A DNA stretch of 45,810 bases from Berkelbacteria bacterium GW2011_GWA2_35_9 (GCA_000991185.1 LBRB01000005.1:1-45810); one strand, 5' to 3'; shown: positions 1,924 through 34,651, counted from the first letter of the stretch. Notes: generated by a model not told the origin, from the sequence alone. Program-made: numbers and translations.

Positions 1924-3093
1924 TTATAACTCAATTTCTAAAGCTTTCTCAAGTTGATTATCAACATTTTCTTGTTTTATAACCTCAATATCAGGTTTAA
2001 TACCGTTTTTATCTATTTCTTGATCCTTAGGTGTCAACCACTTAGCGATCGTTAATCTTAACGATCCGCCATTCGATAATTCTTCCAATTTTTGAACCGA
2101 ACCTTTGCCGTAAGTTTTTTCACCAATTATTTTAGCTTTCTGATTATCTTGCAAGGAACCAGCCACAATTTCAGAAGCACTGGCTGACCCGCCATTAACC
2201 AAAACGACTGTTTTAATTTCAGTTAAAATATTTTTCCGATTCGATTTCAATTCCTCAATTTCACCTTTTTTATTTTTTTCCTTGACAATCACTCCATCTA
2301 TCCAATGTGATCCGATGTCAACCGAACTATCTAAATACCCTCCGGGATTACCACGAAGATCTAGCACAATTCGATCGATATTTTTCAAATCGTTATTTTT
2401 AACTACTTTTTCAAACAATTCGGTCGTATCACTCCCAAACTGAATTATTTCAATATAAAGTATTTTTTTACCGTTTTTTTCAATAATTTTACTACTAACC
2501 GAATCGTATTTAATCGTGTCTCTAACTATTTCATACTCTTTAGCTTGATGATCGCTTTTTTCAACTAACAATTTAACTTTCGAACCCTTTGGTCCACGAA
2601 TTAATGATATTGCTTCCGGTAAAGAAACTTCTTGGCTGTTTTTGTCATCAATCTTTAAAATAATATCTTTTGTCTCAAGACCAGCTTTTTCAGCTGGAGA
2701 ATTTTTAAGTGGGCTGACGACAGTCAACTTCCCATCATCAAGTGAAATTTCAACCCCGATTCCATCAAATTTCCCATCTAACTCTGAGATTAAATCCTTT
2801 GATTCTTCTTGGCTTAAATAAGACGAATGGGGGTCGCCTAAACCTTGAACAATTCCCGCCAACAAGCCGTCAATTATTTTATTTCGATCTATTTCACCTA
2901 CGAAATCATTTTCAATTTCCGACAGCTCTTCGTTGATTAAATTAATTTCGTCTTGTGCTAATTTTCCTGACTGTTGATTTGTTTGCTCAAGAATTATTTT
3001 TTTTGAATAATCCTGCCAATTATAACCAAGATAAAATGACAGCAAGACTAACAAAATAACTGCGACGATTTTAGGTCGTTGATTAAGTTCCAT
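1924..3093 (-). CDS. ctpA: S41 C-terminal processing peptidase with PDZ domain
   Basis: DPHSSY, GIGV (PDZ), LDLRGNPGG, SASASE, TYGKGSVQ. Confidence 0.93.
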   Translation of the reverse strand: MELNQRPKIVAVILLVLLSFYLGYNWQDYSKKIILEQTNQQSGKLAQDEINLINEELSEIENDFVGEIDRNKIIDGLLAGIVQGLGDPHSSYLSQEESKDLISELDGKFDGIGVEISLDDGKLTVVSPLKNSPAEKAGLETKDIILKIDDKNSQEVSLPEAISLIRGPKGSKVKLLVEKSDHQAKEYEIVRDTIKYDSVSSKIIEKNGKKILYIEIIQFGSDTTELFEKVVKNNDLKNIDRIVLDLRGNPGGYLDSSVDIGSHWIDGVIVKEKNKKGEIEELKSNRKNILTEIKTVVLVNGGSASASEIVAGSLQDNQKAKIIGEKTYGKGSVQKLEELSNGGSLRLTIAKWLTPKDQEIDKNGIKPDIEVIKQENVDNQLEKALEIEL

Positions 3094-3107
3094 ATAAATT
3101 CATTATA

Positions 3108-4199
3108 TCAGTTTGAAATTATTGCGCCACCTAGCACTTCATCGCCTCGATAAAAAACTACGTGCTGACCAGGAGTAATTGCTCGAACTGTCTCATTAAG
3201 CTGAATTTTGAACTTTGGATTTTGAAATTTATTTGGACTTTGGATTTTGAAATTTGAAATTTCCGAAATCTGTGTTTCATCAAAATCAACCACCAATTTA
3301 TTGTTCTCAATATCCTTGTAAATTACATATAATGCCTTCCTTGAGTCAGATAGTAATTTTGAATTTTGAAATTTATTATGAACTTTGAACTTTGAACTTT
3401 GAACTTCGGAAGCACTAATGCGCTCTCCGATTGTATAATAAAACGCCCCATCATGCTCCCCGACTTTAGTATTGTTGCTCAATACAACATCTCCAATTTT
3501 TGGTTTAATCATCATTTTCAAAAACTCTTTCAGTGGTAATTTTCCAACAAAACAAATCCCTTGTGAATCTTTTTTGGTCGCATTCGGCAACCTATTTTTT
3601 TTAGCAATTTCTCGCACTTCAGTTTTCATCATCCCACCGATCGGAAAAATAACTTTTTCAAGTTGTTTTTGCCCAAGCTGCCAAAGGAAATAAGCTTGAT
3701 CTTTTGAAGGGTCAACACCACGCAAAAGATAAAAATATTTTGCTAAATTTGAAATTTGAAATTTTAAATTCGCTCGGCGAAGCCGAGCGTAGTGTCCCGT
3801 CGCTAAATAAGCGTTTGGTGAAATTTTTTCAACGAATTTTAATAACGCTCCAAACTTAATAAATGTATTACACCAAACATCCGGATTGGGCGTAATGCCT
3901 TTTTCATAACCTTTAATAAATTTTGAAAATACATTTTTTGCATACTCTTTTTCAAAATTTAAAACATAAAAAGGAATGTCGAGAAAATTTGCCACTCGTT
4001 CCGCCATTTTTTGATCAGCTAAATCTGAACAACTGTCGGTAAATTTTTCATTTTTATTATTTTCGGTTAGCCAACTTTTTATATCAAAGTTTTTCAAAAA
4101 AACGGCGGTCAGATCAAAACCGGCTTTTTTTAAAAGCAATGCCGAAACTGCGCTATCTACTCCGCCTGAAAGAGCAATAACAGCTTTTTTAGATTTCAT
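3108..4199 (-). CDS. mnmA: tRNA 2-thiouridylase MnmA with three in-frame repeat insertions and an apparent C-terminal internal deletion
   Basis: SGGVDS, TPNPDVWCN, ATGHYAR, KDQAYFL, DSQGICF, YTIGER, ITPGQ. Confidence 0.93.
   Translation of the reverse strand: MKSKKAVIALSGGVDSAVSALLLKKAGFDLTAVFLKNFDIKSWLTENNKNEKFTDSCSDLADQKMAERVANFLDIPFYVLNFEKEYAKNVFSKFIKGYEKGITPNPDVWCNTFIKFGALLKFVEKISPNAYLATGHYARLRRANLKFQISNLAKYFYLLRGVDPSKDQAYFLWQLGQKQLEKVIFPIGGMMKTEVREIAKKNRLPNATKKDSQGICFVGKLPLKEFLKMMIKPKIGDVVLSNNTKVGEHDGAFYYTIGERISASEVQSSKFKVHNKFQNSKLLSDSRKALYVIYKDIENNKLVVDFDETQISEISNFKIQSPNKFQNPKFKIQLNETVRAITPGQHVVFYRGDEVLGGAIISN
3204..3263. repeat. In-frame heptamer array in mnmA (4 units + 4 nt + 4 units = 60 nt)
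   Basis: aattttg aactttg gattttg aaattta tttg gactttg gattttg aaatttg aaatttc; encodes EISNFKIQSPNKFQNPKFKI. Confidence 0.9.
3355..3408. repeat. In-frame heptamer array in mnmA (3 units + 5 nt + 4 units = 54 nt)
   Basis: aattttg aattttg aaattta ttatg aactttg aactttg aactttg aacttcg; encodes EVQSSKFKVHNKFQNSKL. Confidence 0.9.
3745..3789. repeat. In-frame heptamer array plus GC hairpin in mnmA
   Basis: aaatttg aaatttg aaatttt aaattcg adjoining CGCTCGGC-GAA-GCCGAGCG (3771-3789); encodes ARLRRANLKFQISNL. Confidence 0.85.
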
Positions 4200-4971
4200 T
4201 TTGAATATTATAAGCTTTGATTAAATTTGAAAATAGATTAGCTACCGTTAGTGGTCCAATTCCGCCAATTGGCGGTACAATCGCTCTGACCAAGCTTTTT
4301 ATTTTTTCAAAATCGGTATCTACCCCACTTGCATCAATGACAATTTGATTTTTAGAAACTAAATTTGGTTGAATAAATTTATGACTGCCGGAGGCTCCAA
4401 TAACAATCTCCGCCTCTAATATTTTACTCCGATAATCACGGTCATTTTTTTCAGTAATATTGACAAAGGCACCTTGTTTTTTAAGCAAAGTTGCTAACGG
4501 TCTGCCAATTAAAAAACCATAACCGACAATCACAAACTTTTTATGATATATATCAATTTTATTATGAAGTAAAAGATTAATTATTGCCATTGGTGTTGGC
4601 GGGCGAAACAGATGCATCCGGAAACCATCAACATCTTTTTTAGGATCGATCGCCCATATTATTTTTAAGCGATCAAGATTGTTTGGAATTGGCATTTGGA
4701 CAATTATCCCATTGACACTTTTGTTTTTGTTTAACTCATCTATTAAATAAACAATATTTGATATTTCAATATTTTCTGGAAATTCAAATAGTTTGAAATT
4801 AACGCCAATTTTTTCAGCGATTTTTTGTTTAATTTCGATATATTTTCGGCTTTGTTTGTCGTCGCCAATTAAAATTACTGCCAATCCCGGGTCACTCGGT
4901 AACATTTTGACTTCAACAGTTAGCTCTTTGATTATTTCATTAGCAATTTTATCGCCCTTGATAATCTTCAT
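4189..4971 (-). CDS. folD: Methylenetetrahydrofolate dehydrogenase/cyclohydrolase
   Basis: PGLAVILIG, Y...K, GIIVQMP, KDVDG, GRPL, PIGGIGPLTV. Confidence 0.9.
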   Translation of the reverse strand: MKIIKGDKIANEIIKELTVEVKMLPSDPGLAVILIGDDKQSRKYIEIKQKIAEKIGVNFKLFEFPENIEISNIVYLIDELNKNKSVNGIIVQMPIPNNLDRLKIIWAIDPKKDVDGFRMHLFRPPTPMAIINLLLHNKIDIYHKKFVIVGYGFLIGRPLATLLKKQGAFVNITEKNDRDYRSKILEAEIVIGASGSHKFIQPNLVSKNQIVIDASGVDTDFEKIKSLVRAIVPPIGGIGPLTVANLFSNLIKAYNIQNEI

Positions 4972-6124
4972 AAACTTCAGTTAATATTTTTAAAAATGTT
5001 TCGATTTCAGTATTACTAGTTGCAAGTGCAATACTTATCCGCAATGTTTCTCTAATTGTCTTTTCGTCAACCTGCATATTTTCTAATACATAAGAAAGCT
5101 TTTGGCTTTTACTGGAACAAGCGCTTCCAATAGAAACTGAAATATTTTGCTTGTCTAAAAGAACAAATAGATTTTGGTGTTCAATATTTTTTAGAGCAAT
5201 TAAACTTATATGTGGCGATCTAGAGCTAGTCTTGAACAATATTTTTGCATCTGCAATTTTTTCAATTCCATTTTCTAATTTGGTTTTTTTGAACTGCAAA
5301 ATTTTTGTATTTTTAATTCTTTTTTGCACAATATTTTCTAAAACTTTAGTCATATAATATATTCCATAAACATTCACTGTTCCTGATCGCTTATCCATTT
5401 CTTGCCCACCCCCGCAAATTAATGGGAAAAATTTCTCCGTCTTAGAAATCATCACTCCAGTTCCTGGCAATGACCCAAATTTATGACCAGAAAAAGTGAC
5501 AATATCGATTAAATCTCTTTCTAAATTGATCGAATAATATTCAACTGCCTGAGTTATATCGGTATGTAAATATGGATATTTTGTATCGTTAGTCAATTTA
5601 TATTTTTTTAATTCCCGACCGATTTTTTTAATATCTTGCACAACACCAGTTTCGTTATTTACAAAACCAACCGAAATTAATACTGTTTCTGGCTTGATTA
5701 GTTCAATAATTTTTTCGGAAATAAAAAGTCCATCTTTTTCTGGATAAATAAATGTTACTTCCGCCCGCTTAAGATTGTTAAGAATTTTAGCGGTTTCAAT
5801 TATAGATGGGTGTTCAATCGAGCTAATAATTAAATGAGGCAATTTTTCACCGGTAGTATTATAATACAATGCATAATCCACCATACCTTTTAAAATTGTA
5901 TTATTGCCTTCGCTAGCCCCACTATTAAAATAGACCATCTCTGGTTCGACTGAAAATATATGGGCAATTTTTTCTCGACATTTTTCCAAAATTTTTGACA
6001 TTTCTCTGCCATGCGAGTGGAGCGAAGAACTATTGCCATAAGATTTTTTAATTAAACTAAAATACTCTTCGGCAATTTTTTCATCCGGTTTTTTTGTCCC
6101 TGCATTGTCTAAATAAATTTTCAT
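4949..6124 (-). CDS. iscS: Cysteine desulfurase (IscS/NifS group I)
   Basis: IYLDNA, IEHPS, VNNETG, SGHKF (PLP Lys), RSGT, GSACSS (catalytic Cys); operonic with mnmA. Confidence 0.9.
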   Translation of the reverse strand: MKIYLDNAGTKKPDEKIAEEYFSLIKKSYGNSSSLHSHGREMSKILEKCREKIAHIFSVEPEMVYFNSGASEGNNTILKGMVDYALYYNTTGEKLPHLIISSIEHPSIIETAKILNNLKRAEVTFIYPEKDGLFISEKIIELIKPETVLISVGFVNNETGVVQDIKKIGRELKKYKLTNDTKYPYLHTDITQAVEYYSINLERDLIDIVTFSGHKFGSLPGTGVMISKTEKFFPLICGGGQEMDKRSGTVNVYGIYYMTKVLENIVQKRIKNTKILQFKKTKLENGIEKIADAKILFKTSSRSPHISLIALKNIEHQNLFVLLDKQNISVSIGSACSSKSQKLSYVLENMQVDEKTIRETLRISIALATSNTEIETFLKILTEVYEDYQGR

Positions 6125-6144
6125 TTTTTATTATTTGCAGGTTA

Positions 6145-6173
6145 ATTTTATAAGAATAACTTTTATAAGTCAA
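6145..6173 (-). promoter_or_regulatory. Sigma70-type promoter of iscS-folD-mnmA
   Basis: TTGACT-17 nt-TAAAAT on the minus strand. Confidence 0.6.
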
Positions 6174-6205
6174 GAATCAAAATTACACTTTCTTACAGGA
6201 GCACA

Positions 6206-6376
6206 TTATTCTTTTGAATAATATTTATACTCGGTAATCATATTTTTTTCAAGTTGTCTCAGGTGATTGTCATATTTTTTAATTAATAAATATTTAATTA
6301 AAATAGCACTTAGATAAAATATTAAAATAACAACAATAAATATATTTATCAAAAATAATGCATTTTTTTTATTCAT
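6206..6376 (-). CDS. Small single-TM protein (56 aa), below the ORF-track cutoff
   Basis: Manual translation MNKKNALFLINIFIVVILIFYLSAILIKYLLIKKYDNHLRQLEKNMITEYKYYSKE; its start overlaps the stop of the upstream gene. Confidence 0.5.
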   Translation of the reverse strand: MNKKNALFLINIFIVVILIFYLSAILIKYLLIKKYDNHLRQLEKNMITEYKYYSKE

Positions 6377-7448
6377 TAATCCACCCCATTTCTTTTGCGG
6401 TTCTTTTATTAATTAAAGAGGAGTAATTTGAATCTAGATCAACGCTTCCACTATTACACATTAAACTATAATGGTTACCTGTAATAGTTTCGTCAAATGT
6501 ACCATCCTGACATGGCTTATTAATATCTCCACCTATAATGTATTGGTCTGACGCTCCTAAAGAATGAGCCATTTCGTGAACTAAAGTACCAATATGTATC
6601 CCCCATTGATTAGGAAACAACCATGTTAAGCTTGATCTGACCGAACTAAGTGAATGAGAGACTAAAAGAGCGCCAATGTCATTTGGAGCATAAACAACTA
6701 CTCCAATTGCATCATAATCTCTTATGTCGATATTTTGTTTTTTAAAATTTTTAATCATAAAATTATCAGAAATTCCCCATTCTCCAATAGCTTCATCTCG
6801 ATTGCTAGCTGTTAGTTGAGGAAGCTTTTCATCAATCTTGATGGGTTCCTTAACGGTTAAATTTACAGTTAAATCTGCATTAAAACGCTTTGCTTGAGCT
6901 TCATAATAAGTTTTAATATACCTAAAAGTTGGATTAGAAATTTCTGAACCAGGAAGTTTTATTTTTTCTTGTTCACTATTTAAAGCTTCTATATATTTTT
7001 TAATAATTTCATTTTCTTGATCAACATCCTGAGGTATCAGTTGCACAATTAAAAAATTAAGGTCTCCGACTGCTTTTGTTAAAACATATGCACAAGTCGA
7101 ATGGTCAGTAATTTTCCTCCATGGTTTTTCATATTCCTGACAGTTGTTATTATCTTCAACTATTTTAGAGCCATTCTCGCCACTGTTTAAATATTTGTAT
7201 ATTCTATTGGTTGTATCTTCACTAAATTTTATTTCTGATGTCTCTTTAGTTATTAAATCTTCATTTTTTTGTAACGCTAGATTAATAATATCTTCATATT
7301 TATCGTGTATTGCTAGAACTTTACTAAGATATTCTTGATAATATTTATGATTATAACGATAGTATATAATATTAATAAATACTATTAGCAATGCCAAAAA
7401 CCAGAATAAACATATTTTTAAATCTTCTTTTTCAATCTTGATTGACAT
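6369..7448 (-). CDS. Membrane-anchored zinc metallopeptidase-like protein
   Basis: N-terminal TM helix; HEMAHSLGASD (HExxHxxGxxD) and a YSLM Met-turn-like motif. Confidence 0.75.
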   Translation of the reverse strand: MSIKIEKEDLKICLFWFLALLIVFINIIYYRYNHKYYQEYLSKVLAIHDKYEDIINLALQKNEDLITKETSEIKFSEDTTNRIYKYLNSGENGSKIVEDNNNCQEYEKPWRKITDHSTCAYVLTKAVGDLNFLIVQLIPQDVDQENEIIKKYIEALNSEQEKIKLPGSEISNPTFRYIKTYYEAQAKRFNADLTVNLTVKEPIKIDEKLPQLTASNRDEAIGEWGISDNFMIKNFKKQNIDIRDYDAIGVVVYAPNDIGALLVSHSLSSVRSSLTWLFPNQWGIHIGTLVHEMAHSLGASDQYIIGGDINKPCQDGTFDETITGNHYSLMCNSGSVDLDSNYSSLINKRTAKEMGWINE

Positions 7449-7456
7449 TTTTGTGT

Positions 7457-9082
7457 CTAATATCCTTCAGGATAGAAATAATTTTGGGTTAAAAATACAT
7501 CAACTATTTTTTTAGGAATAGATGAACCTGTGCTAGTAATGTAGTTTGCTGTTTCAGCTGTTTTTACAGAACTAAAGATAATATAATTTTCGTTGTTTAC
7601 AAAATAAAAATCTCCCGAAACAGTTCCAAGATTAGTAATGTTCTTTTCAACGTTTGTACTTTTTTCTTTTAAGAAAAGATCAGTCTTCCCATCTCGTGTT
7701 TCTTTAAATATTTCTATATTTCCGTCTTGAGTAAATATCCTCTCTCTTCTACTGTTAGCTGAGTCCGGTGTATAATTACTAATATTACCGGTTTCTATAT
7801 TATATTGTTTATACAGCGTTTTACTTTCTTCAGTGTCATAGTATGAATATAGCAAATACTGATTATCTTGCGAGTACTTTAAATCACTGACAGAGCTATC
7901 TGTAATTTTTTTTGTTGAATTGTTAGAAAATCTATATATATATGTTCCCTTTTCAGAATTAATATCTCCATAAATAGTATTTTGTATCCAACTTATTGTT
8001 TTTCCTGAAAAACTAAATGCAAAACTATTCAAACCTCCATTTTCTGCTAATTTAATTGTGCTCTCGCTCGTCACATTATAAATATATAATTTATTACTGA
8101 AATCATCTTGACCTTCTTTTCCGATCCACGCAATATATTTATTATCAGAAGACCACCTTACTCCATTTATGCTATATTGATTTCCAATTTTCTTCAAACT
8201 CTCTCCTGAACTTTTAATTAAATAGATATAATCACGAAAAGTTCCGTCTGCCTTTTTTTCTTGATCTCGTGTTGACATAAATACAACCCAGTTTTTATCA
8301 GGACTAGATTGAGCATTATAATCCTCACCCTCTCCAAGTCTTTTTACCAGCTGACTTAATTCCGTACCATCATAATTTGCTAAATAAACTCCTTTTTTCC
8401 CACCATCTCTATTTGAAACAAAATATAATTTTCCAGATGGAACTATTTCAATGACTTGATCTTTGTTGTCGGAAAAAATAATATTTTTTTCTATTTTATT
8501 ATATCCTTCTTTTTCTATAGTTACTTTATGGTCGTCAATTGCAATTTTTTCAAATAGAGCAATTCCCTTTTCGTCGGTTTCTCGTTCTTCCCCTAAAATT
8601 TTTATTTTTACACCTTTTATTGTTTGACCATTAATATAATTTTTAGTTGTAATAGAAACATTATCGGTAACAATTGTTTTTCTCAACTGTACCAGCTTGT
8701 TATTTACTCCTTTTTTCAATTTTATTTTTTCTTCGTAATTGTCAAATCCGCTTGTGGTAATTAATAGTTTGTACGTTCCTGCATGTAGATTATTAATAAT
8801 TAGCAACCCTTGATTGTCACTTATTTTATCAATCCCATTGATATTTCCTTTAGCACCAATAACGGTTTCGTTGTTTTCATCAGTTATTTTAACCTCGAGT
8901 TTGGCAGGAAATATTTTCAATAATAAAAAACTATAACTATCAGTCTGCCATATCAATACTAAAATAGCTATTAGCAATACAAACAACGAACTAATTCTAA
9001 GAAAATTTTTCGATATTACAAAATAACGGCTCTTCTCAGTATTTAATGTATTTCCTGAAACGGTTTCTTGATATTTTTTTAT
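7457..9082 (-). CDS. Exported protein with carboxypeptidase-regulatory/PEGA-like domains and a TolB-like beta-propeller; start uncertain (ATA 9082 or TTG 8986)
   Basis: FVSNRDGG...ANYDG, SPDKNWVVFMSTRD, WSSDNKYIAW repeats; the frame is open up to an SD-preceded ATA at 9082. Confidence 0.75.
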   Translation of the reverse strand: MKKYQETVSGNTLNTEKSRYFVISKNFLRISSLFVLLIAILVLIWQTDSYSFLLLKIFPAKLEVKITDENNETVIGAKGNINGIDKISDNQGLLIINNLHAGTYKLLITTSGFDNYEEKIKLKKGVNNKLVQLRKTIVTDNVSITTKNYINGQTIKGVKIKILGEERETDEKGIALFEKIAIDDHKVTIEKEGYNKIEKNIIFSDNKDQVIEIVPSGKLYFVSNRDGGKKGVYLANYDGTELSQLVKRLGEGEDYNAQSSPDKNWVVFMSTRDQEKKADGTFRDYIYLIKSSGESLKKIGNQYSINGVRWSSDNKYIAWIGKEGQDDFSNKLYIYNVTSESTIKLAENGGLNSFAFSFSGKTISWIQNTIYGDINSEKGTYIYRFSNNSTKKITDSSVSDLKYSQDNQYLLYSYYDTEESKTLYKQYNIETGNISNYTPDSANSRRERIFTQDGNIEIFKETRDGKTDLFLKEKSTNVEKNITNLGTVSGDFYFVNNENYIIFSSVKTAETANYITSTGSSIPKKIVDVFLTQNYFYPEGY

Positions 9083-9087
9083 AAACT

Positions 9088-9121
9088 CCTCCTTATTTAT
9101 ATGTTATTATTTATTATAACA
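9088..9121 (-). promoter_or_regulatory. Extended -10 promoter and strong SD
   Basis: TGTTATAAT (9121-9113) and AAGGAGG (9094-9088). Confidence 0.6.
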
Positions 9122-9134
9122 AATAATTTACATT

Positions 9135-9917
9135 CTACCTATCAAAATTAAAAAGATTAACGCTGTTTTGATTGATAATTAATTTAGTTTCCTCAATCTT
9201 TACATTTTTTATTTCGGCAATTTTTTTATAAACAAATTTGACATCGCTTGGCAGACTGTAATTTCTTCCAGTCTTTTTATTCGGAATAAATGGTGCATCG
9301 GTTTCACATAGAATTTTATTAATATCAATTTCGCTTATTATTTTGTCAAAATCTTTGCAATTGCAAATTATATTGGTTAAACCGATGTAAAATCCCAAAT
9401 TAATTATCTTTTGAGCTTGTTTAAAATTACCGGTAAAACAATGAAATACACCAGACAATTTTTCTTTTTGCGCTTTTCTTTTTTCTATATTTTCAATAAT
9501 TTTATTGATTGCGTTTTTTCCACGAGCGTGGATAATTATTGGTATATTGTTTGCAACTGCAATGTCTATAAATTTATCTAAATATTTTTCTTGATCCTCT
9601 GATGAAATATTTTCTATTTTTTCATCCAGCCCAATCTCTCCAACCGCCACAATATTATCTTTTTCTTTTATTACTAACTCCTCCAAAACCGTTTGCACAC
9701 CTACGATGTGTGTAAACGGTTTTATCTCACTGGGATGTATCCCAACCGATGCAAAAACATGTGTGTTTTTTTTAGCTAGTGCGATATTTTTCCGTGAATC
9801 ATCTAAATTTGTTCCAACCGAAACCATCAGCAAATCTTTTTGCTCAACAATTTCTTTCACCATTTTATTTAATGGATTGTATGTTAGATGGCAATGAGTA
9901 TCAATCAGTCGGCTCAT
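9135..9917 (-). CDS. tatD: TatD family DNase
   Basis: DTHCHL, GIHP, GEIGLD, IIHAR, HCFTG, ETDAPF. Start placed at the second Met because ATG 9935 lies in a repeat terminus. Confidence 0.92.
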   Translation of the reverse strand: MSRLIDTHCHLTYNPLNKMVKEIVEQKDLLMVSVGTNLDDSRKNIALAKKNTHVFASVGIHPSEIKPFTHIVGVQTVLEELVIKEKDNIVAVGEIGLDEKIENISSEDQEKYLDKFIDIAVANNIPIIIHARGKNAINKIIENIEKRKAQKEKLSGVFHCFTGNFKQAQKIINLGFYIGLTNIICNCKDFDKIISEIDINKILCETDAPFIPNKKTGRNYSLPSDVKFVYKKIAEIKNVKIEETKLIINQNSVNLFNFDR

Positions 9918-9929
9918 AATATTTTTTCG

Positions 9930-9969
9930 TGTCATCCTCGACCGAATAAAATTCGAGACCGGGGATCCA
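9930..9969. repeat. Half copy of the TGTCAT palindromic element
   Basis: TGTCATCCTCGA...CGGGGATCCA matches the left half of the 18339 and 29181 copies. Confidence 0.8.
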
Positions 9970-9973
9970 TAAA

Positions 9974-11348
9974 TTACGATCTTGGAAATAGTGGTTTGGC
10001 TTTTCCACTTTTAAGCTGTCTAAGAGTTTTCTCTGAAGTATCAGGTATAAACGGTGCTAAATCGTATGCAATCAGCTCCACTTTACGCAAAAGTAATTTA
10101 ATTGTTTTTTTATCACCCGTTTCTACAATAATCGGGGTTCTCAGGATTAAATTTAATAGTAAATTTTTTTGCTAAAACGACAGTCCGTTGCACCAAATTT
10201 CCAAGCTCGTTAGCTAATTCACTTTCATACCTGCGATCTAATTCTTCAAAACTAAAGTCGCCGTCGTTACCAAACGGAAAACTTGAAATGAGTAAATAGC
10301 GAGTCGCATCCAAACCATACTTATTTATTAATTCTTGAATAGATATTATATTTCCCAAACTTTTCGACATCTTTTGCTTATTGATCGTAAAAAACCCGTG
10401 CGCAAAAAGCTCTTTTGGTAATTCTAGCTCGGCTGATAATAATAATCCAAGCCAGGTAACTCCATGAAAACGCAAAATATCTTTACCAATCAACTGCAAA
10501 TCCGGACTCCAAAATTCCTTATGTTTCGGGTTTCGGATTTCGGATTTCGGGTTTTGAATTACAGACAGGTAATTCAAAAGTGCATCTACCCAAACATAAA
10601 TTGTTTGCTCTTTGTCCCACGGCACCGGAATTCCCCACTCTACTTTGCTTCTTGAAATCGCCGTATCTTCTAGTTTGTTTTGTAAAAATCCCAAAACTTC
10701 GTTTTTGCGTTCAAGTGGTCTAATTTTAACTTCATCCGATTCAATTAATTGAATAATTTTATCTTGATATTGTGATAACTTGAAAAAATAGACTGCTTCT
10801 TTAACATTTTCAACCGGTTTTTTGTGAATTGGACAGTTGCCATTTTCTAAATCTTCAGCTTTTTTATACTCTTCGCAACCAACACAATACAAACCCTCGT
10901 ATATTCCCTGATATATATCACCTTTACTGTAAAGTTTAGTCAAAAATTCCTGAACGAATCTTTCATGGTTTTCATCCGTCGTTCTAACAAAATAATCGTA
11001 ATTAATATTTAAAAGCTTCCACGCATTTTTAAACTCATGCGATATTTTGTCTGTATAATTTTGGATTTTTTCCGACGATCCAATTGTATCGGATGTCGGA
11101 ATCCCGACCGAAGCGTCGGGAAAATTGTGTTTTTTATCTTTTATTTTTAATCTTTGCTCTCCAAAATCCAGCGCCGAGCGCTGTATTTTGGCGCCGTGTT
11201 CATCCGTTCCCGTCAAAAAGAAAACTTTTTCACCCCAACTTTTGTGCGCACGACAAAGAATATCAGCCGCTATGGTTGTATAAGCATGACCAATATGCGG
11301 ACTGGCATTAACATAGTAAATCGGGGTTGTAATATAAAACTTGTTCAT
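9974..11348 (-). CDS. metG: Methionyl-tRNA synthetase; frameshifted with an internal deletion near 10128 as assembled
   Basis: HIGH, TGTDEHG, CxxC knuckle, YVWVDAL, GKDI, KMSKS. The C-terminal VETGDKK...LAPFIPDTSEK...PLFPRS* lies in another frame (10126-9974). Confidence 0.92.
10523..10557. repeat. In-frame heptamer array in metG
   Basis: gtttcgg gtttcgg atttcgg atttcgg gttttga; encodes QNPKSEIRNPK. Confidence 0.88.
11070..11158. repeat. In-frame GC double hairpin plus heptamer array in metG
   Basis: TTCCGAC..GTCGGAA and TCCCGAC-CGAAGC-GTCGGGA (11070-11121), then 4 cttttat-like units (11131-11158); encodes QRLKIKDKKHNFPDASVGIPTSDTIGSSE. Confidence 0.88.
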
Positions 11349-11444
11349 AATATATAGCTATATTACCCTAATCCTTGACATTTTGCAATTTACAGTTCGA
11401 AGTTCGAAAGGAGCTTGAAAATACGGAAAGTCACTCAAACAGCT

Positions 11445-11469
11445 ACCGTGCACTGCGAGGGTGCACGGT
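11445..11469. repeat. GC-rich hairpin just after the NRAMP stop (REP-like or terminator)
   Basis: ACCGTGCAC-7 nt-GTGCACGGT; no clear U-tract. Confidence 0.6.
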
Positions 11470-11475
11470 TGGTTC

Positions 11476-12834
11476 TTATAGATATATAAACATTGCTATG
11501 ACTGCAATCAACATAATCGCAAATGTTAACCAACCTAATACTTTTGAGATTGGCTTGTTAGTATATTTTCCCATAACATCTTTTCTCGAACTAATTAAAA
11601 CGATCATCGCAATCAACGGCACCGCCACAATGCCGTTTAATACTGCCGAATAAAACAACCCCTTGATCGGGTCAATGCCGATAAAATTGATCCCTAAACC
11701 ACACAATGTCGAAATAATAATTATGCCATAAAACCCACTCGCTTCTTTAAACTTATGAAACAAACCCTCTTTCCAACCAAATGCCTCGCTCAAAGCGTAG
11801 GCTGCCGATCCAGCTAATATTGGGATTCCCAATAACCCTGCTGCAATAATTCCAATCATAAAAAACAGACCTGCCATATCGCCGACTAACGGCTGTAAAG
11901 CTAAGGCGGCATCTTGAGCTGATGAAATATTATTAATTCCATTTTTATTCAAAACTGTTGCACAAGTTACTACAATCGAAAAAGCAATTAATTGCGATAG
12001 AACCATCCCTAAAACTGTATCAACCCGCATCTTTTTTAACATTTTAGGATGAACATATTTACTACTAGCATCATCGTTAAGTGCTTTTTCTTCAACTTCT
12101 TCAGACGCTTGCCAGAAAAAAAGATAAGGTGAGATTGTTGTCCCCAAAAAAGCTACTGTCGTCATAATATATTCACCATTAAATTGCCAATTGCTATAGG
12201 TAAATAATGACTTGCCTATGTCTGTCCAGTTTTGAGGCACAGCAAAAAGAGTTAACAAATAAGTTAATAAAAATATTGTCAACCATTTCAAAATATTGGC
12301 ATAGATACGATAGGATATAAAAACTTCAAGAAAAATAATAATTAGTGTAGTGATGATTGCCCAAAAACTGATTTTACCACCCAATATTAAACTTAATGTG
12401 GCTGACATAGCTGAAATATCGGCTCCAATATTGAAAATATTAGCGCCAACTAAAACGAAAACAACTAAAAAGAGAAGATACTTTGAATAATGTTTCTTAA
12501 TATTTCCAGCCAAACCATGACCAGTTACAATTCCAATTCGAGCACAAATTTCTTGAATTGCGATCATCAAAGGAATCTGAATTGGCATCAACCAGTTCAA
12601 TCCCAAACCATACTTTGCTCCCGTAATCGAGTAAGTTCCAATTCCGCTTGGATCATCATCTGAAAAACCAGTAATCACTCCTGGTCCAACGACTTTTGAT
12701 GCTTTTTTTACATTGTCTGAAATTTTTTTCTGATCTTTTTTAATTTCATCTGAAATTTCCCCCAAATGGACGCTCGAAGCTTTTTCAAACTCTTCAATAA
12801 AATCTTCAGTTTTTTCAATTGTTTTCTTTTTCAA
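11476..12834 (-). CDS. NRAMP-family divalent metal transporter
   Basis: DDDPSGIGTYS..GA.YG, GTTISPYLFFWQ, ~11 TM helices. Confidence 0.88.
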   Translation of the reverse strand: MKKKTIEKTEDFIEEFEKASSVHLGEISDEIKKDQKKISDNVKKASKVVGPGVITGFSDDDPSGIGTYSITGAKYGLGLNWLMPIQIPLMIAIQEICARIGIVTGHGLAGNIKKHYSKYLLFLVVFVLVGANIFNIGADISAMSATLSLILGGKISFWAIITTLIIIFLEVFISYRIYANILKWLTIFLLTYLLTLFAVPQNWTDIGKSLFTYSNWQFNGEYIMTTVAFLGTTISPYLFFWQASEEVEEKALNDDASSKYVHPKMLKKMRVDTVLGMVLSQLIAFSIVVTCATVLNKNGINNISSAQDAALALQPLVGDMAGLFFMIGIIAAGLLGIPILAGSAAYALSEAFGWKEGLFHKFKEASGFYGIIIISTLCGLGINFIGIDPIKGLFYSAVLNGIVAVPLIAMIVLISSRKDVMGKYTNKPISKVLGWLTFAIMLIAVIAMFIYL

Positions 12835-13628
12835 TTGTCCAAATTATTTTTTAGAATCGTATACAAATTTTGCCAATCTAAAACCGTTAGATCTTCAGCT
12901 CGATACCCCTCTTTGATCTGACTTTTCTCCATTATATCAAATAAATCCGTTTTATCGAAATTCAAAATCGGAAAGAGGGAATTGATCAGTTTTCGTCTTT
13001 TTTGGGAAAAACCAGCTTTAATTAAACGCATCATTCCCACCTCAAGTGGAGTAATATTATTTTTTTTGCTTAATTTAATGACCGCCGAATCAACTTGAGG
13101 AATTGGTTGAAAATTTTCTTTTGAAACCTCAAATAATATTTCTATTGCGTAATAATACTGCAAAAAAACGGACAAAATCCCACGATTTTTTTCACCCGCT
13201 TTTGAAGCTAATCTTTCAGCCACTTCTTTTTGAACCATCAAAACCGCCATTGTTGGTTTTTCAATTTCACCGGTTACAAAATATTTATTAATTATTGGCG
13301 AAGTAACTGCATAGGGTAAGTTGGAAATTAGCTTATAATCATTTTTAGTAAATCTTGCTAGATCAGTTGAATTAAATTCTAATGCATCTCGATTGACCAC
13401 TTTAATATTTTTGCGATTTTTATAAACTTTTTTAAGTTTTTCCGCTATCCCAAAATCTTTTTCCAAGGCTAAAATGTCAATCGGTTTTTCAATCAATAAA
13501 TCCGTCAAAGCGCCTCTACCCGGACCAATCTCAATTATCTTATCACCAGTTTGCGATTCAATTGCTTCAACAATTTGTTGAGCAATAATTTGGTTAGTTA
13601 AAAAATTTTGACTGAGTTTTGTTTTCAT
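12831..13628 (-). CDS. rsmA: 16S rRNA dimethyladenosine transferase
   Basis: SQNFL, EIGPGRG, NLPY, MVQKEVAER, PQVDS, FSQKRRK, RAEDL. Confidence 0.95.
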   Translation of the reverse strand: MKTKLSQNFLTNQIIAQQIVEAIESQTGDKIIEIGPGRGALTDLLIEKPIDILALEKDFGIAEKLKKVYKNRKNIKVVNRDALEFNSTDLARFTKNDYKLISNLPYAVTSPIINKYFVTGEIEKPTMAVLMVQKEVAERLASKAGEKNRGILSVFLQYYYAIEILFEVSKENFQPIPQVDSAVIKLSKKNNITPLEVGMMRLIKAGFSQKRRKLINSLFPILNFDKTDLFDIMEKSQIKEGYRAEDLTVLDWQNLYTILKNNLDN

Positions 13629-13644
13629 AACTCAAATTATACTT

Positions 13645-14203
13645 TGGAAAACAAAGGAGTACAAGGGAGAACAAATAAATTAATATGGTAAATTCCCTAT
13701 TATTTTTCTTTTAATATTTTGTTTTCGTTTGAATATCAGATCTTCTTTCTGATCTCCGGAATTGATATATTTATTTTCCAAACCTTCAATTTGCCTCAAA
13801 AGCATCATTTTCTCACCCATTAACAATTTGATGGTTTTTGATATTTCATCTAATTCTTGCCCCTTTGTTTTCCTTAGTCTTCCTCTATATTCCCTTTCGA
13901 GCTCAAAATAATCCTCTAATAATTCTATTAGTGACGCTAAACTAAATTTCAAAAACTCAATGTAATTTTTCGTTTGGTTACGGCTCCAACCCTCTGAAAT
14001 ATTGGCAGTAATAGACCGTCCGCATAATTGCATTTGTTCTATTAACCGACGATCTCTATAAGAATCTAAATAACTCCGACAAAATTCCTTAGTCAATACT
14101 TCGATTTCTTTTCCTTGTTGAAAAGTCCTCAATGCTTTATACCCCAATGGATTGAATGTGTTACTTTGCCGCATTGCCCTCCTTTGTACTCCATTGTTTT
14201 CCA
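13645..14203. mobile_element. Putative cassette: four-helix-bundle gene enclosed by 30-bp inverted arms made of 10-mer units
   Basis: 13645-13674 TGGAAAACAAAGGAGTACAAGGGAGAACAA versus the reverse complement of 14174-14203, TGGAAAACAATGGAGTACAAAGGAGGGCAA (26/30 identical). Confidence 0.65.
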
Positions 14204-14204
14204 T
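13680..14204 (-). CDS. Four-helix-bundle protein (23S rRNA IVS-protein/Avd-like family)
   Basis: L..QM....RSI.ANI.EGW.R....YI.FL..S..SL.EL signature. The real start may be the second Met, since the first 10 codons are the repeat arm. Confidence 0.85.
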   Translation of the reverse strand: MENNGVQRRAMRQSNTFNPLGYKALRTFQQGKEIEVLTKEFCRSYLDSYRDRRLIEQMQLCGRSITANISEGWSRNQTKNYIEFLKFSLASLIELLEDYFELEREYRGRLRKTKGQELDEISKTIKLLMGEKMMLLRQIEGLENKYINSGDQKEDLIFKRKQNIKRKIIGNLPY

Positions 14205-14209
14205 CTTAT

Positions 14210-15151
14210 TTATGGTTTAGTAAGCTTAACTTGTATTGTTCCAGCACCAAGCGGAGCTAGTTGGGAAAAAGCGTCGGGTGAAAGATCGATAATTGCATTA
14301 GACTGAATTCCGGGACCGACAATTTTAACCATCACCTGTTTACCATTTGAAATGTTAGTCACTAAAACCATAGTTCCACGAGGCAATGTGTTATGTGCCG
14401 CACTCATAGCTGGAGCACTATACCAAGTTGCTTTTCCAACTCCGTATACCACCTCTTTTGTACCGTAATAAATTATTTCCTCAACCGCCTCTTTGGTTGT
14501 CTCAGTTTTAATTAGTTTACGGCTTTTTTCAATTCCGTTTTCCCGAGTTACTTCATAAGTTAATTTTTTCTCGCCATTTTGTCCTTTTTGAGTGACTTTT
14601 TCTTCGCCTTTCCACATTTCCGGATCCTCTTTTCTGATAGTTGTGTAAGCAATTTTTTCTTTTTCATCAATATTTGTTTTTTCAACTCTAATTATCTCTA
14701 TCTCGAGACCAGCATCAATTTCATGTGCTAAAACCGGGTCGATTTTGTCTAACCCCCCAAGCTCAATCGATTTTTCCTTTAAAAATTCATCAACGTTTTT
14801 TGCAAAAGTTCGATGTTCTCTTGAATATTTTGCGTCAAGAACGGTAACATTTAAAGATCGTTTAATCGAAATTTTTGCGCCTAACCCCAATCCTAAATCA
14901 GGAAAAATCGTAATTTTATCTTGTGGATAAATTGTTAATTCATTTTTCTTAACAAAATCTTTAAAATTATTAATTGATGAATCGGCAAAGTAATTTTCGA
15001 TTTTGATCCGTGAATCTTCTTTATCTTGCTCAGCTTTGGCTACACTGACACCTAAAACTTGTCCTTCAGTATTACTCTCTTCCGGGACAATATTGATAAC
15101 AAATACAAATAACACCGGTAATAAAACTAATGCCAATAATTTTTTCAACAT
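14210..15151 (-). CDS. YabE/RpfB-like cell-wall protein: DUF348 + G5 + RlpA-like DPBB domain
   Basis: Signal/TM segment; G5 (QKGQNGEK.L.Y.V..ENG.E...YGTK); ATWY..AAH.TLP.GT.V.V.N...IIDLS..AF. Confidence 0.85.
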   Translation of the reverse strand: MLKKLLALVLLPVLFVFVINIVPEESNTEGQVLGVSVAKAEQDKEDSRIKIENYFADSSINNFKDFVKKNELTIYPQDKITIFPDLGLGLGAKISIKRSLNVTVLDAKYSREHRTFAKNVDEFLKEKSIELGGLDKIDPVLAHEIDAGLEIEIIRVEKTNIDEKEKIAYTTIRKEDPEMWKGEEKVTQKGQNGEKKLTYEVTRENGIEKSRKLIKTETTKEAVEEIIYYGTKEVVYGVGKATWYSAPAMSAAHNTLPRGTMVLVTNISNGKQVMVKIVGPGIQSNAIIDLSPDAFSQLAPLGAGTIQVKLTKP

Positions 15152-15170
15152 ATTCTTTATTATTTACTAA

Positions 15171-18100
15171 CTAGACAATAAATTCAACCGCTTCGCCGTC
15201 AAGATGTGAAATTTCATCAATAAATCGAGAACGGCTTTGATATTGAAACGATCCGAAAATAAAACGATTTCTGGAGTAGATTAAATAGAGACGGTTTTTG
15301 GCTCTTGTCATACCGACATAACACAACCGTCGCTCTTCTTCTAACTCACTTTCATCCTGTAAACTTCGACCATGAGGCAATAGCCCTTCTTCAAGACCGA
15401 CGACAAAAACCGTCTCGAATTCCAATCCCTTGGCTGAATGTAAAGTCATTAAAGTAACTGCTTGATCGTCGCTATTAATTTTGTCTGTGTCCTGGACCAA
15501 CGCCACTTTTTCTAAAAATCCATCAATTGTTTGGTATTGGCTAGCAACAGTTTTTAACTCTAAAATATTTTCCAAACGACTTTCATTTTCAATCGTTCCA
15601 TCGTCGAGCCATTTTTTATAACCGGTTTTATACATAATTAAATCAATTATTTCCGCCGGTGTTTTAAACTCGATTTTTTCTCGCATACCATCAATCATCT
15701 TCAAAAAATCTTGCACCTTGATTGGTATTTTTTCATTTTGAATTTTAAATTGTGATTTTGAATTTTGCATTTTGAATTTTGCATTCGAAAAACTTTCATA
15801 AGTTTTTCGTCCTATTCCTCTTGTCGGTGTATTGATTATTCTCTCCATTGACACGCTATCATTTGGGTTAACTAAATATCTTAAATAAGCAATTATATCT
15901 TTAACTTCTTTCCGTTCATAAAATCTAATTCCACCAATTAAACGGTACAAAATATTGGCTTTTATTAATCCTTCTTCCAAACTTCGGGATTGAGCATTAG
16001 TACGGTATAAAATTACAATCTCGTTCAGTTTTTGTTGCAAGGCTTTTATCTCACGAATTATAAAATCGATCTCTTCATTTTCGTCTTCAACTTCAAGCAC
16101 CGTAACTGGTAAGTTAGATTTTATTTCAGTCCACAATTTTTTTTCACTGCGAACTCGATTATTTTTTATCAATGCTTGAGCGCCGGTTAAAATATTTTCT
16201 GTCGAGCGATAATTTTGTTCAAGCTTAAAAGTTTTAGCATTCGGATAATCCCGCTCAAAATTCAAAATATTGCGAAAATTTGCGCCTCGCCACGAGTAAA
16301 TTGAATTATGCACTACCACTCCATTCGCTACATAATTATGTAACTTATCTATTTCTAAATCATAAACAAAACCTTGATAATCGATCATTTTAATATCAAC
16401 AATTTCGTCTTCAACAATATTATTATTTTCAATAATCGCAATTTTCATTGATTTTCGAAGATGAGACGCCGGTGTAAAATGCATTCTTTTGCCCTCAACC
16501 AAACAAGCAGTTTTAACTATATTAAAACCTCCTCTGATGCTCGATACTATTTTATTTAATATAATTTCGATTTCACCATAGTCAAGCCTCGTTATTTCCG
16601 TTCGCCAGTCGGATGATTTTCCTTTTCTCGTCATAATTCCTAATTTTTCAATATGTGATTTTAATTCAATATCGCTAGAATTGATTGATAAACGACTCAT
16701 CCCCCAAGGATTGAGAATGCTCTTTCTGCGATCATCAAACAATGCCAACCTTATATTTATCCTCTTGGTGCTATTTCGAATAGTAGCTTGTGGTGTCCAG
16801 TGTGAATATTCTTCAAATAAATATTGATCTGCCATTAATATCTTGGCTTTTTCAACAGTATCGATATTTTTATAAAGGTCGTCTATTTGTTTCTGATCCA
16901 TTATTGTACTTCTTCCTGCTGTAAAAAATATTACTGTCGGTATTCCATATTTAAACGCAAAAAATGATTCCCAATAAATTGCTTCCGCTGAACCATCACA
17001 AACCCTCAATATCCACATTTTATCTGCCTTTTCTTGATTGCCTCTGACTAGTAATCCATTTTGTGGTTTATGTTTTGTTATTCTTGTCCCTTTTGCAATA
17101 CCGACCCTAAATCCTTTATCCTTCCTAAACATTAAATAGACATAAAATATATTTGAATTAATCCCTAATCTTGAAAATACAATATGATTTGGAGTTAATA
17201 ATAATATTTTATTTTTTTTAGTTTTTACCCTAATTAATTTTCCTTTATATGAATATTTTTTTATTTTTTCAATTCCCTTAAAGACTGAACTACCATTGCC
17301 GGAAGCAACTCGAATATTATCTTTCAGTGTAATATTGCAAATATTCTTTAATCCTTTTTGAGTTATTAATTTTGTTAATGGATGGAAGCATTGAAAATCG
17401 TCTCCGACGACGCAGATGTTTTTTGTCTTTTGGCTTAGTAATTTTATTAGCTGATATTGCGGTTCGTTAGTATCTTGATACTCATCAACCATAATGTATT
17501 GAAACTGGTTTTGATAACGATCCAATATTTCCTGAGTGGTTTTAAAAAGCTTAACCACATTGATTAATAAATCATCAAAATCCATGGCGTTATTTTCAAC
17601 CAATCTTTTTTCATAGAGCGTATAAATTTCTGAAATAATTCGAGTAAAATAATCATTTGCAATTTTTTTATATCCAGCACTATCGATCAGTTCAGATTTT
17701 GCGGATGAAATTAATGCCGAGACTAAACCAGGATTAAATTTTTTTGGATCGTATTTGAGATCTTTGACAATTCTTTTAATTAACTGCTTTTGATCATCGC
17801 TATCATAAATTGAGAAATTATTGGTATATTTTAACAACGATTGATCGACTTCTCGACGCAAAATCTTAGCACAAATCGAATGAAAAGTCCCAGCCCATGG
17901 CAATTTATTATTTTGATATTTGGAATTTGAATTTTGTTTAATATTTGAAATTTGAATTTTGGAATTTGAGATGATTAAAAGATTTTCGATTCTTTTAATC
18001 ATCTCTTGCGCTGCTTTATTGGTAAAAGTGACCGCTAAAATCCGAAATGGGCTGACTTTTTTTTCTAAAATCAGATAGGCGAGTCGATGAGTCAAAGTTT

Positions 18101-18206: not shown

Positions 18207-18212
18207 AGAATT

Positions 18213-18221
18213 AGTATAACA
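18213..18221 (-). promoter_or_regulatory. Extended -10 element 6 nt upstream of the pcrA ATG (leaderless-type)
   Basis: TGTTATACT-aattct-ATG. Confidence 0.6.
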
Positions 18222-18240
18222 CTCAAAATTTGTAATTAAT

Positions 18241-18329
18241 AATTAATATCTCAGAATTAAGTCCCGACGATTAATAAATGTCGGGATCCCGATCGAAGCA
18301 TCGGGAAATCTAATTTAAAATTAATAATC
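18241..18329. repeat. Inverted copy of the junction repeat interrupted by a 45-nt GC double hairpin (18262-18306)
   Basis: The flanks match the reverse complement of 22297-22340; the insert is the same family as 11070-11121. Confidence 0.85.
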
Positions 18330-18338
18330 ATTGTTTTA

Positions 18339-18428
18339 TGTCATCCTCGAGCCGGTGTGAGTATATCGAACACCGACATCGGGTATCCAGTGATTAATAC
18401 TGGATTCCGGATCAAGTCCGGGATGACA
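18339..18428. mobile_element. MITE/REP-like palindromic element, full copy (90 bp)
   Basis: TGTCATCC...ATCCAG-spacer-CTGGATTCCGGATCAAGTCCGGGATGACA. Confidence 0.8.
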
Positions 18429-18436
18429 CAGGGATC

Positions 18437-22270: not shown

Positions 22271-22347
22271 AATCAAATTAAGAATTAAGAAACTTAGATT
22301 ATTAATTTTGGATTAGGTTCTTAATTCTGAGATATTAATTTTGAATT
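22271..22347. repeat. Gene-junction arm/anti-arm heptamer repeat; 22302-22347 is identical to 31951-31996 (46 bp)
   Basis: ttaattttggattaggttcttaattctgagatattaattttgaatt, preceded by the complementary aattaagaattaagaa. Confidence 0.88.
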
Positions 22348-31890: not shown

Positions 31891-31891
31891 T

Positions 31892-31996
31892 AATTAAGAA
31901 TTAAGATCTCATAATTCATAATCAAATTTAGAGTTTATAAACTATAATTTTTAATTTTGGATTAGGTTCTTAATTCTGAGATATTAATTTTGAATT
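31892..31996. repeat. Gene-junction arm/anti-arm heptamer repeat supplying the last codons of the 31970 gene
   Basis: aattaagaattaagatctcataatt versus aattctgagatattaatt; 46-bp identity to 22302-22347. Confidence 0.88.
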
Positions 31997-33184: not shown

Positions 33185-33192
33185 AATATATA

Positions 33193-33277
33193 AATTAAGA
33201 ATTCAGATCTCAGAATTAATAATCTAATTTTTAATTTTTAAATGTGATTCTGAATTCTTAATTCTTAACTTTGAATT
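33193..33277. repeat. Gene-junction arm/anti-arm heptamer repeat supplying the C-terminus of the 33224 gene
   Basis: aattaagaattcagatctcagaattaat versus ttctgaattcttaattcttaactttgaatt; encodes NSKLRIKNSESHLKIKN*. Confidence 0.85.
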
Positions 33278-34609: not shown

Positions 34610-34651
34610 TAAACTTCTCTTATAATAGCACACTTATCTTCTTTTGGTAAA

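Follow-up and report, generated by a model that had tools for sequence, protein, structure and literature searches.

The seven heptamer arrays found within the genes mnmA, metG and pcrA of Berkelbacteria bacterium GW2011_GWA2_35_9 are part of a genome-wide repeat population, and no property of these three genes in particular. The window analyzed here is one whole contig of 45,810 nucleotides (LBRB01000005.1; contig C5 of a genome that we label G000: 619 kb in 37 contigs, approximately 33% GC, 85.6% complete). On balance we favor the reading that the arrays are translated, in-frame and selection-filtered members of this population, and that the population, built of heptamer arms, is bound up with cassettes encoding a four-helix-bundle protein. 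The protein belongs to PF05635/TIGR02436, the family of the 23S rRNA intervening-sequence (IVS) proteins and of Avd of the diversity-generating retroelements (DGRs). A relative from the same genus (sister species) is denoted G001.

A preliminary description of the window, made from the sequence alone, had reported the seven arrays. Tandem Repeats Finder (TRF) returns period-7 rows at each of the sites, with ends that differ by 1 to 3 nt, so the existence of all seven is beyond question. They lie in minus-strand open reading frames (ORFs) that are identified as MnmA, MetG and PcrA by NCBIfam. The shared higher-order architecture is recovered as well: three heptamers and a further 4 nt make up a period of 25 nt, which occurs in two copies at 3207-3255 in mnmA (95% match) and at 17912-17961 in pcrA (92% match). 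Genome-wide this period yields 11 TRF rows, against at most three for each of the periods 22-24 and 26-31. Total lengths of 60 nt (four units, 4 nt, four units) and 54 nt had been given for two pairs of arrays; here the bipartite architecture stands, and the exact counts vary with the boundaries chosen for the fuzzy ends. Richness in A on the coding strand is seen in six of the seven, and fails for 3745-3770, where A = T = 12. The reading frame is kept through the arrays, as had been claimed, with the caveat that mnmA and metG carry defects, both of them outside the arrays.

Across the genome period 7 accounts for 198 of 760 TRF rows. At a score of at least 40 there are 66 rows at period 7 compared to two at period 6 and six at period 8, and order-5 Markov simulations (n=5) yield 0 to 1 period-7 rows at this score. 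A purpose-written lag detector finds 32 arrays at lag 7 and at most two at every other lag between 4 and 15; in three simulated genomes it finds none at lag 7. A chance origin of the heptamer arrays is excluded. After merging, 120 period-7 loci are obtained (45 in ORFs, 63 intergenic and 12 at boundaries), and with gene calls from a simple purpose-written ORF caller their density is 1.11 per kb in non-coding against 0.082 per kb in coding DNA, a difference of approximately 13.6-fold. The NCBIfam scan covered 23 of the 29 array-bearing ORFs besides mnmA, metG and pcrA. Among these are LeuRS, ValRS, ProRS, GltX, GatB, DnaX, TopA, EF-P, LepA, YchF, TsaD, RecJ, Fpg, UDG, MurB, MurJ, FtsW and FolD, which are mostly housekeeping proteins.

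To place the arrays in their proteins we made alignments that include 11 relatives for MnmA and nine each for MetG and PcrA. The arrays fall at loops that are short or variable in the relatives. Those in mnmA are insertions compared to nine of the 11 MnmA relatives, those in metG and pcrA compared to eight MetG and eight PcrA relatives outside the genus; several of the latter are variable at PcrA site A. The array at 11131-11158 in metG forms the start of an insertion that is not found in relatives outside the genus. All seven sites are common to G000 and G001 only. Between these two species the metG arrays are nearly identical. At 3355-3408 in mnmA the G001 insert is equal in length and the unit is different (AAAGTTC against AAAAATC), alike in all four copies, while at 15734-15787 in pcrA an insert of equal length has another sequence and unit. 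Within mnmA, TRF gives period-7 rows for G001 and for G005, which is of another family and has 44% GC, and for none of the other nine relatives. Two further cases show both types of arm at the same loops, in each case with the A-rich arm first and the T-rich arm second: at the site of 3745-3772 the in-frame insert of G001 is longer and has both arms, and in G005 and G011 the PcrA loop after motif Ia, which holds the array at 17909-17968, contains palindrome-coded inserts of this kind.

An AlphaFold2 model of MnmA, based on the 12-sequence alignment, has a mean predicted local distance difference test (pLDDT) of 80.3. Values below 50 are restricted to residues 48-52, 54-56, 148-152, 265-286 and 315-326, and the last three segments coincide with the residues encoded by the three mnmA arrays (Table 1). 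The closest solved structure is 9hlv_A (E = 1e-64). Taken with the alignments, the low pLDDT at the MnmA arrays marks the arrays as in-frame insertions in tolerant parts of housekeeping proteins.

Since the unit is not a multiple of 3 and the change of one unit shifts the frame, the arrays might be contingency loci, i.e. phase-variable repeats that switch genes by frameshift. We consider this very improbable. The hosts are housekeeping genes (for MnmA, MetG, PcrA, LeuRS, ValRS, ProRS, GltX, DnaX, TopA, EF-P and others), the arrays are imperfect, and their length is kept between G000 and G001 at four of the seven sites, though different at the other three.

Hardly credible, in turn, is an artefact of the assembly of this metagenome-derived genome. 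Arrays are present at the same sites in an independent assembly from the same genus, a public contig is identical to the window over 3000-3270 with the array included, and the same architecture recurs in 79 independent assemblies. What speaks for an artefact are two anomalies resembling mis-joins, at 3270 in mnmA and at 10123 in metG. In mnmA, at 3264-3275, approximately 41 conserved residues of the C-terminal domain (EPLWRK...RYHQ..) are missing from the G000 protein and present in 11 of 11 relatives; the end of the gap coincides with the array at 3204-3263, and past 3270 the public contig continues with 91 letters that are not on the window. This gap could be a mis-join or a strain variant. 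At the 3' end of metG (9975-10125) approximately 165 nt of the anticodon-binding domain are missing in comparison with G001, together with a frame change near 10123. The gene stops at about 10105-10115, and the C-terminal tail of MetRS is still readable at 9975-10100 in a different frame. Here the public contig equals the window over 9828-10123 and then shows 109 letters unlike it, and a local assembly error is likely.

The preliminary description had also proposed that the period-7 signal is deposited, or selected, in an orientation set by transcription. Oriented deposition is not borne out. Genome-wide, the coding strand is the A-rich one in 38 of the 45 arrays inside genes, but arrays between co-directional genes show no polarity (A-rich strand sense in 30, antisense in 26), and it is in non-coding DNA that arrays are denser. 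Inside genes the polarity follows the survival of the frame. As 7 mod 3 = 1, each array gets read in all three frames, and the reverse complements of AAATTTC, AAAATTC and AAAGTTC include TGA. Inverted placement would lead to an in-frame stop in 27 of the 45 coding arrays, and to a stop in some frame in 33. In coding DNA 19 of 45 arrays have one strand or both free of stop triplets, against eight of 75 in non-coding DNA (Fisher p 1e-4, odds ratio 6.1); the unit AAAYCCG of the metG array at 10523-10557, for example, has no stops on either strand. Stop-free T-rich arms do occur inside genes, namely in fpg on contig C6 (FRISDFGFRI), in mnmA of G001 and in PcrA of G005 and G011. The A-rich polarity inside genes is therefore a survivor filter.

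Outside genes the heptamers form a dispersed element. A 21-nt motif taken from a recurrent intergenic composite gives 47 arm matches at up to four mismatches, and eleven short full copies align to an imperfect palindrome of approximately 106 nt, with arms that are heptamers with a 4-nt phase shift. With a profile of the arm, nhmmer returns 55 arms at E <1e-3, corresponding to 18 paired copies plus 19 arms that stand alone. The elements are often directly next to genes, and they fold with energies far below those of shuffled sequences (e.g. -23 versus -12 +/- 2.6). The motif is counted 37 times in G000, twice in G001 and 0 to 1 times in five other genomes of the order; a reversed-pattern control in G000 gives one. 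G001 lacks the element of 31891-31996 at the orthologous site, which has 19 nt in place of 124 nt, and holds a copy of it with 88% identity elsewhere. Likewise, the site of the composite element at 18207-18436 is a short spacer with (GTATTAT)3 in G001. Terminal inverted repeats and presence/absence polymorphism, both found here, are among the criteria for a miniature inverted-repeat transposable element (MITE). Significant single arms also lie inside genes (nhmmer: ValRS, E = 3e-6; TsaD, E = 2.8e-8; and the ORF at 33224-34633), and both arms of a palindrome are found inside fpg of G000, at the mnmA site of G001 and in PcrA of G005 and G011. The better-folding strand is antisense to co-directional neighbors in 10 of 14 cases, which is not significant. 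Searched with Rfam at gathering thresholds, the whole window shows only a tRNA (22039-22111), so that the elements match no curated RNA family.

A GC-rich hairpin mini-element, TCCCGAC..GTCGGGA and often then TCCCGAT..ATCGGGA, is present at 12 loci, five of them in genes. In heptamer elements it sits within the phase-shift junction; in metG and ValRS it stands in frame.

In G000 the PF05635 family is matched at five places, all flanked by short tandem-unit arrays and in four of the five cases by inverted pairs. The cassette on the window sits between protein-coding genes, not in 23S rRNA, and its 24-nt inverted repeats (13646-13669 and 14179-14202) are built of units of approximately 10 nt. 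In G001 the orthologous site lacks the cassette and has instead a spacer of 52 nt that contains heptamers. The gene on C4 is enclosed by two arms belonging to the 106-nt element family, that on C23 by inverted heptamers and that on C7 by arrays of approximately 9-nt units, and a fragment on C32 has heptamers on one side only. Over six genomes, the inverted repeats flanking 16 PF05635 genes reach at least the 95th percentile of 300 random windows in 12 cases. The arm motifs of the cassettes on C5, C23, C7 and C32 are hardly dispersed, with two to five matches each, so that most of the arrays cannot be copies of them.

The link with four-helix-bundle cassettes, which the preliminary description had raised as a possibility, extends well beyond this genome. 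Using arbitrarily chosen stretches of 9-40 kb per genome, array density rises with PF05635 copy number across 31 genomes of 29 families (rho 0.78, p 2e-7, a value that ignores relatedness and includes no phylogenetic correction). A first version of the analysis, which included contigs picked for holding a PF05635 gene, gave rho 0.76. The partial correlation is 0.72 given GC and 0.72 given the count of Y1_Tnp genes, and given PF05635 the Y1_Tnp count itself shows no relation to array density (partial r -0.01). In each of the 10 genomes that lack PF05635 the density is at most 0.035 arrays per kb; genomes with at least four copies range from 0.025 to 0.67 arrays per kb.

A second survey, with three aligned family proteins as the query and one genome per species, considered the best 79 of 590 relatives, i.e. 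the best-scoring relatives of one PF05635 subfamily rather than a random sample of the family. At least one period-7 array lies within 260 nt of the gene in 74 of the 79 loci (on both sides in 48, only upstream in 15, only downstream in 11, on neither side in five). Within this distance 134 period-7 arrays are found (3.32 per kb) against 96 (0.31 per kb) at more than 700 nt, and each of the other periods from 5 to 12 is represented near the gene by at most three arrays. From the end of the upstream array to the conserved core the median distance is 33.5 nt, and from the stop to the start of the downstream array it is 3 nt. The two flanks of a cassette pair with each other more strongly than flanks taken from different loci (median duplex energy -42.5 versus -28.3, Mann-Whitney p 4e-19), and in 31 of 78 cassettes the pairing is below the 5th percentile of the control. 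The association holds for loci not labeled as Candidate Phyla Radiation (CPR), with arrays in 16 of 17. For arrays far from the gene that lie in long open frames of other genomes we counted 19 A-rich and 20 T-rich cases, a count that was left unused as the assignment of frames is crude.

Such a tight spatial link to the PF05635 gene, together with the narrow size of the arrays near cassettes (median 4.3 units, interquartile range 3.9-4.7), is what one would also see if the arrays, those within core-gene mRNAs included, were functional, i.e. selected as binding or processing sites for a pentameric four-helix-bundle protein, or for RNase III where arms pair, and helped to control expression or the stability of RNA. 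In Coxiella the stem of the IVS is cut by RNase III, and a homopentameric structure is cited for a family member (PMC4990558). Still, we regard a functional role as improbable: the units are highly diverse in a genome with just five such proteins, coding arrays have no partner arm and hence no stem, and the 13.6-fold depletion in coding DNA points to tolerance rather than selection.

In the reading that we favor, non-coding arrays pair as complementary arms into imperfect palindromes of approximately 106 nt, the presence of which differs from the sister species, and the same type of arm encloses PF05635/TIGR02436 genes in the order array, ORF, reverse-complement array. Arms (halves or whole palindromes), or arrays seeded in a similar way, may have entered genes before G000 and G001 split. 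The survivors would be those copies that landed in tolerant surface loops with an open frame and a hydrophilic reading, and a filter on frame and hydrophilicity would leave an A-rich coding strand and peptides of K, N, Q, S, F and I. As the arrays would be translated as disordered loop insertions, no removal step is required. The coding arrays presumably descend from element arms; for the seven arrays we infer this from the shared period, the 7n+4 architecture, the nested hairpin, and the whole palindromes that relatives carry at these loops. Generation or spread of the arrays may in addition be due to the cassettes or to their protein. It might even be argued, though we put this forward tentatively and with some doubt, that heptamer arms are the cis-acting parts of widespread, as yet undescribed selfish cassettes for the pentameric Avd/S23p-like four-helix-bundle protein, in which this protein or the RNA stem generates and spreads arrays. 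If true, a single cause would underlie the heptamer excess (in CPR genomes and the Coxiella IVS, and possibly in Nostoc and Xanthomonas), the palindromes without ORF and the in-frame loops of core proteins.

A number of observations weigh against descent from cassette-linked arms. Each of the seven arrays consists of direct repeats on a single strand and lacks a complementary partner arm in G000, and the nhmmer arm profile gives no significant match to them (the best is pcrA 15735-15767, E = 1.7). The flanks of the one empty site that was compared have diverged and show no readable target-site duplication, and no enzyme moving the elements was identified. Units of far arrays lie within one mismatch of the cassette arms of the same locus in 19% of cases and of other loci in 11% (36 loci, 81 arrays), a similarity so weak that copy-and-paste from one cassette fails for most arrays. 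Some genomes are rich in PF05635 and poor in arrays in the sampled stretches, namely G016 (seven genes, 0.025 per kb), G009 and G019. The filter on stop codons does not cover all of the polarity: of 12 arrays with no stop on either strand, 10 nonetheless have the A-rich sequence on the coding strand, a remainder that may reflect selection against hydrophobic loops. To these must be added the simple gene calls, the uncorrected p-values and the choice of one subfamily mentioned above. Finally, unit sequences vary from site to site while the period of 7 is constant.

This last point speaks for slippage alone, the idea being that units of approximately 7 nt slip preferentially, so that arrays arise in place and evolve in concert, with the cassette association being secondary because cassettes may land in, or recombine with, existing arrays. 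The concerted difference in unit (AAAGTTC against AAAAATC) between mnmA arrays of the same length fits such a process, as do the two orthologous spacers in which G001 has a plain heptamer array and G000 a cassette or composite element. MutS_V has no match in the 85.6%-complete G000 genome. An excess of heptameric repeats has moreover been published for Xanthomonas and Nostoc, where they are over-represented in intergenic DNA, mostly with four units and some of them inverted; in the available part of that source slippage of the polymerase is offered as the explanation, with a polymerase-footprint idea being cited, and not a link to cassettes (PMC4692102). Slippage alone nonetheless seems rather unlikely to us. 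It leaves unexplained why arms are complementary specifically at cassettes, why a 106-nt element has 37 arms in one species, and why 7n+4 recurs. The metG arrays are stable between G000 and G001. The PF05635-free genomes with at most 0.035 arrays per kb include the AT-rich G025 (37% GC), and G015 (33% GC, two PF05635 genes) has no array in 40 kb.

The arrays can be compared to several known systems. Heptameric simple sequence repeats, such as the short tandemly repeated repetitive sequences of cyanobacteria and the GGGAATC-type and GGGGAYT repeats of Xanthomonas and Nostoc, share the tandem 7-nt units, the intergenic excess and the several unit types. The arrays described here differ in being AT-rich, in supplying arms both to a dispersed palindrome and to four-helix-bundle cassettes, and in lying in frame inside housekeeping genes in approximately 45 of 120 cases. 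The cassettes resemble the 23S IVS encoding S23p (PF05635), which has an ORF of the same family enclosed by complementary, stem-forming termini and adjoining heptamers. In Coxiella the family protein is encoded in a stem-loop of terminal inverted repeats, preceded by two to three tandem GACAGAT heptamers whose copy number varies between strains; that element is regarded as selfish, its mobility being merely hypothesized (PMC4990558). The present cassettes lie between protein-coding genes instead of in helix 25 or 45 of 23S rRNA, their arms are themselves tandem arrays, and derivatives without ORF and arrays within genes are numerous.

Rickettsia palindromic elements (RPEs) and other intragenic MITEs are small palindromic repeats too; they are found between genes and also, in frame, within unrelated housekeeping genes, to which they add a peptide that is tolerated by the fold (PMC10969869). 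However, RPE families share sequence and peptide, whereas the arrays share period and architecture; most in-gene copies here are single arms, and the seven arrays are neither palindromic nor family matches. As to MITEs, one copy of the element (on C4) encloses a PF05635 gene, which is no known transposase. In Borgs, too, tandem nucleotide repeats in ORFs give low-complexity segments. Their in-gene units are reportedly multiples of 3, whereas the unit of 7 found here is read in all three frames in turn and the frame is kept by total length alone. The segments added in Borgs are probably disordered (PMC9879509). PF05635 resembles Avd of DGRs, which falls in the same protein superfamily as the cassette protein (PMC10053308), but G000, at 85.6% completeness, has no match to the reverse transcriptase RVT_1, and no pair of template and variable repeats was seen. 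A literature search, with supplements outside it, returned no paper that links genome-wide heptamer arrays to four-helix-bundle cassettes. The paper on the Coxiella IVS describes heptamers for a single element.

With these data two questions become testable together: why heptamers are over-represented in certain bacteria, and what the 'intervening sequence' proteins of the four-helix-bundle type and the inverted repeats around them are. The architecture array, ORF, complementary array is near-invariant in 74 of 79 loci from many lineages, and it is accompanied by a dose relation across genomes and by gains and losses between sister species. In a tiny genome the arrays reach the core proteome (aminoacyl-tRNA synthetases, DnaX, TopA, EF-P and PcrA), where selfish repeats may remodel protein loops through a simple filter of stop codons and solubility. 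From a practical point of view, genomes assembled from metagenomes are likely to be mis-assembled and mis-annotated at arrays of this kind.

Table 1. Coordinates of the heptamer arrays, cassette and associated elements on the window, and of related features on other contigs of G000 (contig given before the colon).
Feature	Coordinates	Strand	Details
mnmA array	3204..3263	-	TRF 3202-3262, 9.1 copies; MnmA residues ~313-332
mnmA array	3355..3408	-	bipartite; TRF 3379-3406, 4.0 copies, 100% match; second sub-array from 3356; MnmA residues ~264-282
mnmA array	3745..3772	-	short; TRF 3745-3770, 3.7 copies; MnmA residues ~143-152
metG array	10523..10557	-	TRF 10523-10554, 4.6 copies; unit AAAYCCG, peptide NPKSEIRNPK
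GC-rich double-hairpin mini-element, 42 nt	11082..11123	-	in frame beside metG array; absent from G001
metG array	11131..11158	-	TRF 11132-11155, 3.4 copies, weakest of the seven; unit AAAAGAT
Four-helix-bundle cassette (TIGR02436/PF05635)	13630..14210	-	ORF 13680-14204
pcrA array	15734..15787	-	TRF 15735-15785, 7.4 copies; 3' of GIGRKT motif
pcrA array	17909..17968	-	TRF 17910-17967, 7.6 copies
Composite palindromic heptamer-arm element	18207..18436	.	upstream of pcrA; two nested GC-rich hairpin inserts
Single element arm	22296..22347	-	intergenic; nhmmer E = 3.8e-11
Full-length 106-nt palindromic element	31891..31996	.	heptamer arms
Palindromic-family element	33192..33277	.	intergenic spacer into 3' end of ORF 33224-34633
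Hairpin mini-element loci	window 11082-11123, 18262-18306; C17:8967-9011; C11:24268-24312; C3:18867-18911; C7:17237-17275; others
Y1_Tnp genes	C21:693-1346; C15:7089-7763; C9:20430-21086; C6:36704-37369; C15:14970-15326		last one looks broken

A second type of nested insert, gtcat(c/t)cc...ggaatccag ... cgaggatgac, is found in the loops of heptamer palindromes, at 18207-18436 on the window and at C30:3450-3600 and C7:12663-12866. G000 further contains four or five Y1_Tnp (IS200/RAYT-like) genes of approximately 220 amino acids, each bracketed by its own GC-rich hairpins. They are candidate movers of hairpin DNA; no link between these genes and the arrays was found.

In pcrA an intein occupies 16302-17390 (PcrA residues ~273-635), with N- and C-terminal splicing regions above the NCBIfam cut-offs; it was not found in G001 or in the eight other PcrA relatives aligned. 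In four groundwater runs the contig depth reaches up to approximately 1200 in bins 3000-3510, 10154-10664 and 15264-15774, against single digits elsewhere. These spikes at array bins stem from contigs of other organisms and were not used as evidence, though they suggest that arrays like these are frequent among the more abundant organisms of those samples. Finally, the unit of one intergenic array (C13:8369-8394), AAACCCT, equals the plant-type telomere repeat, which is probably a coincidence within the heptamer population.

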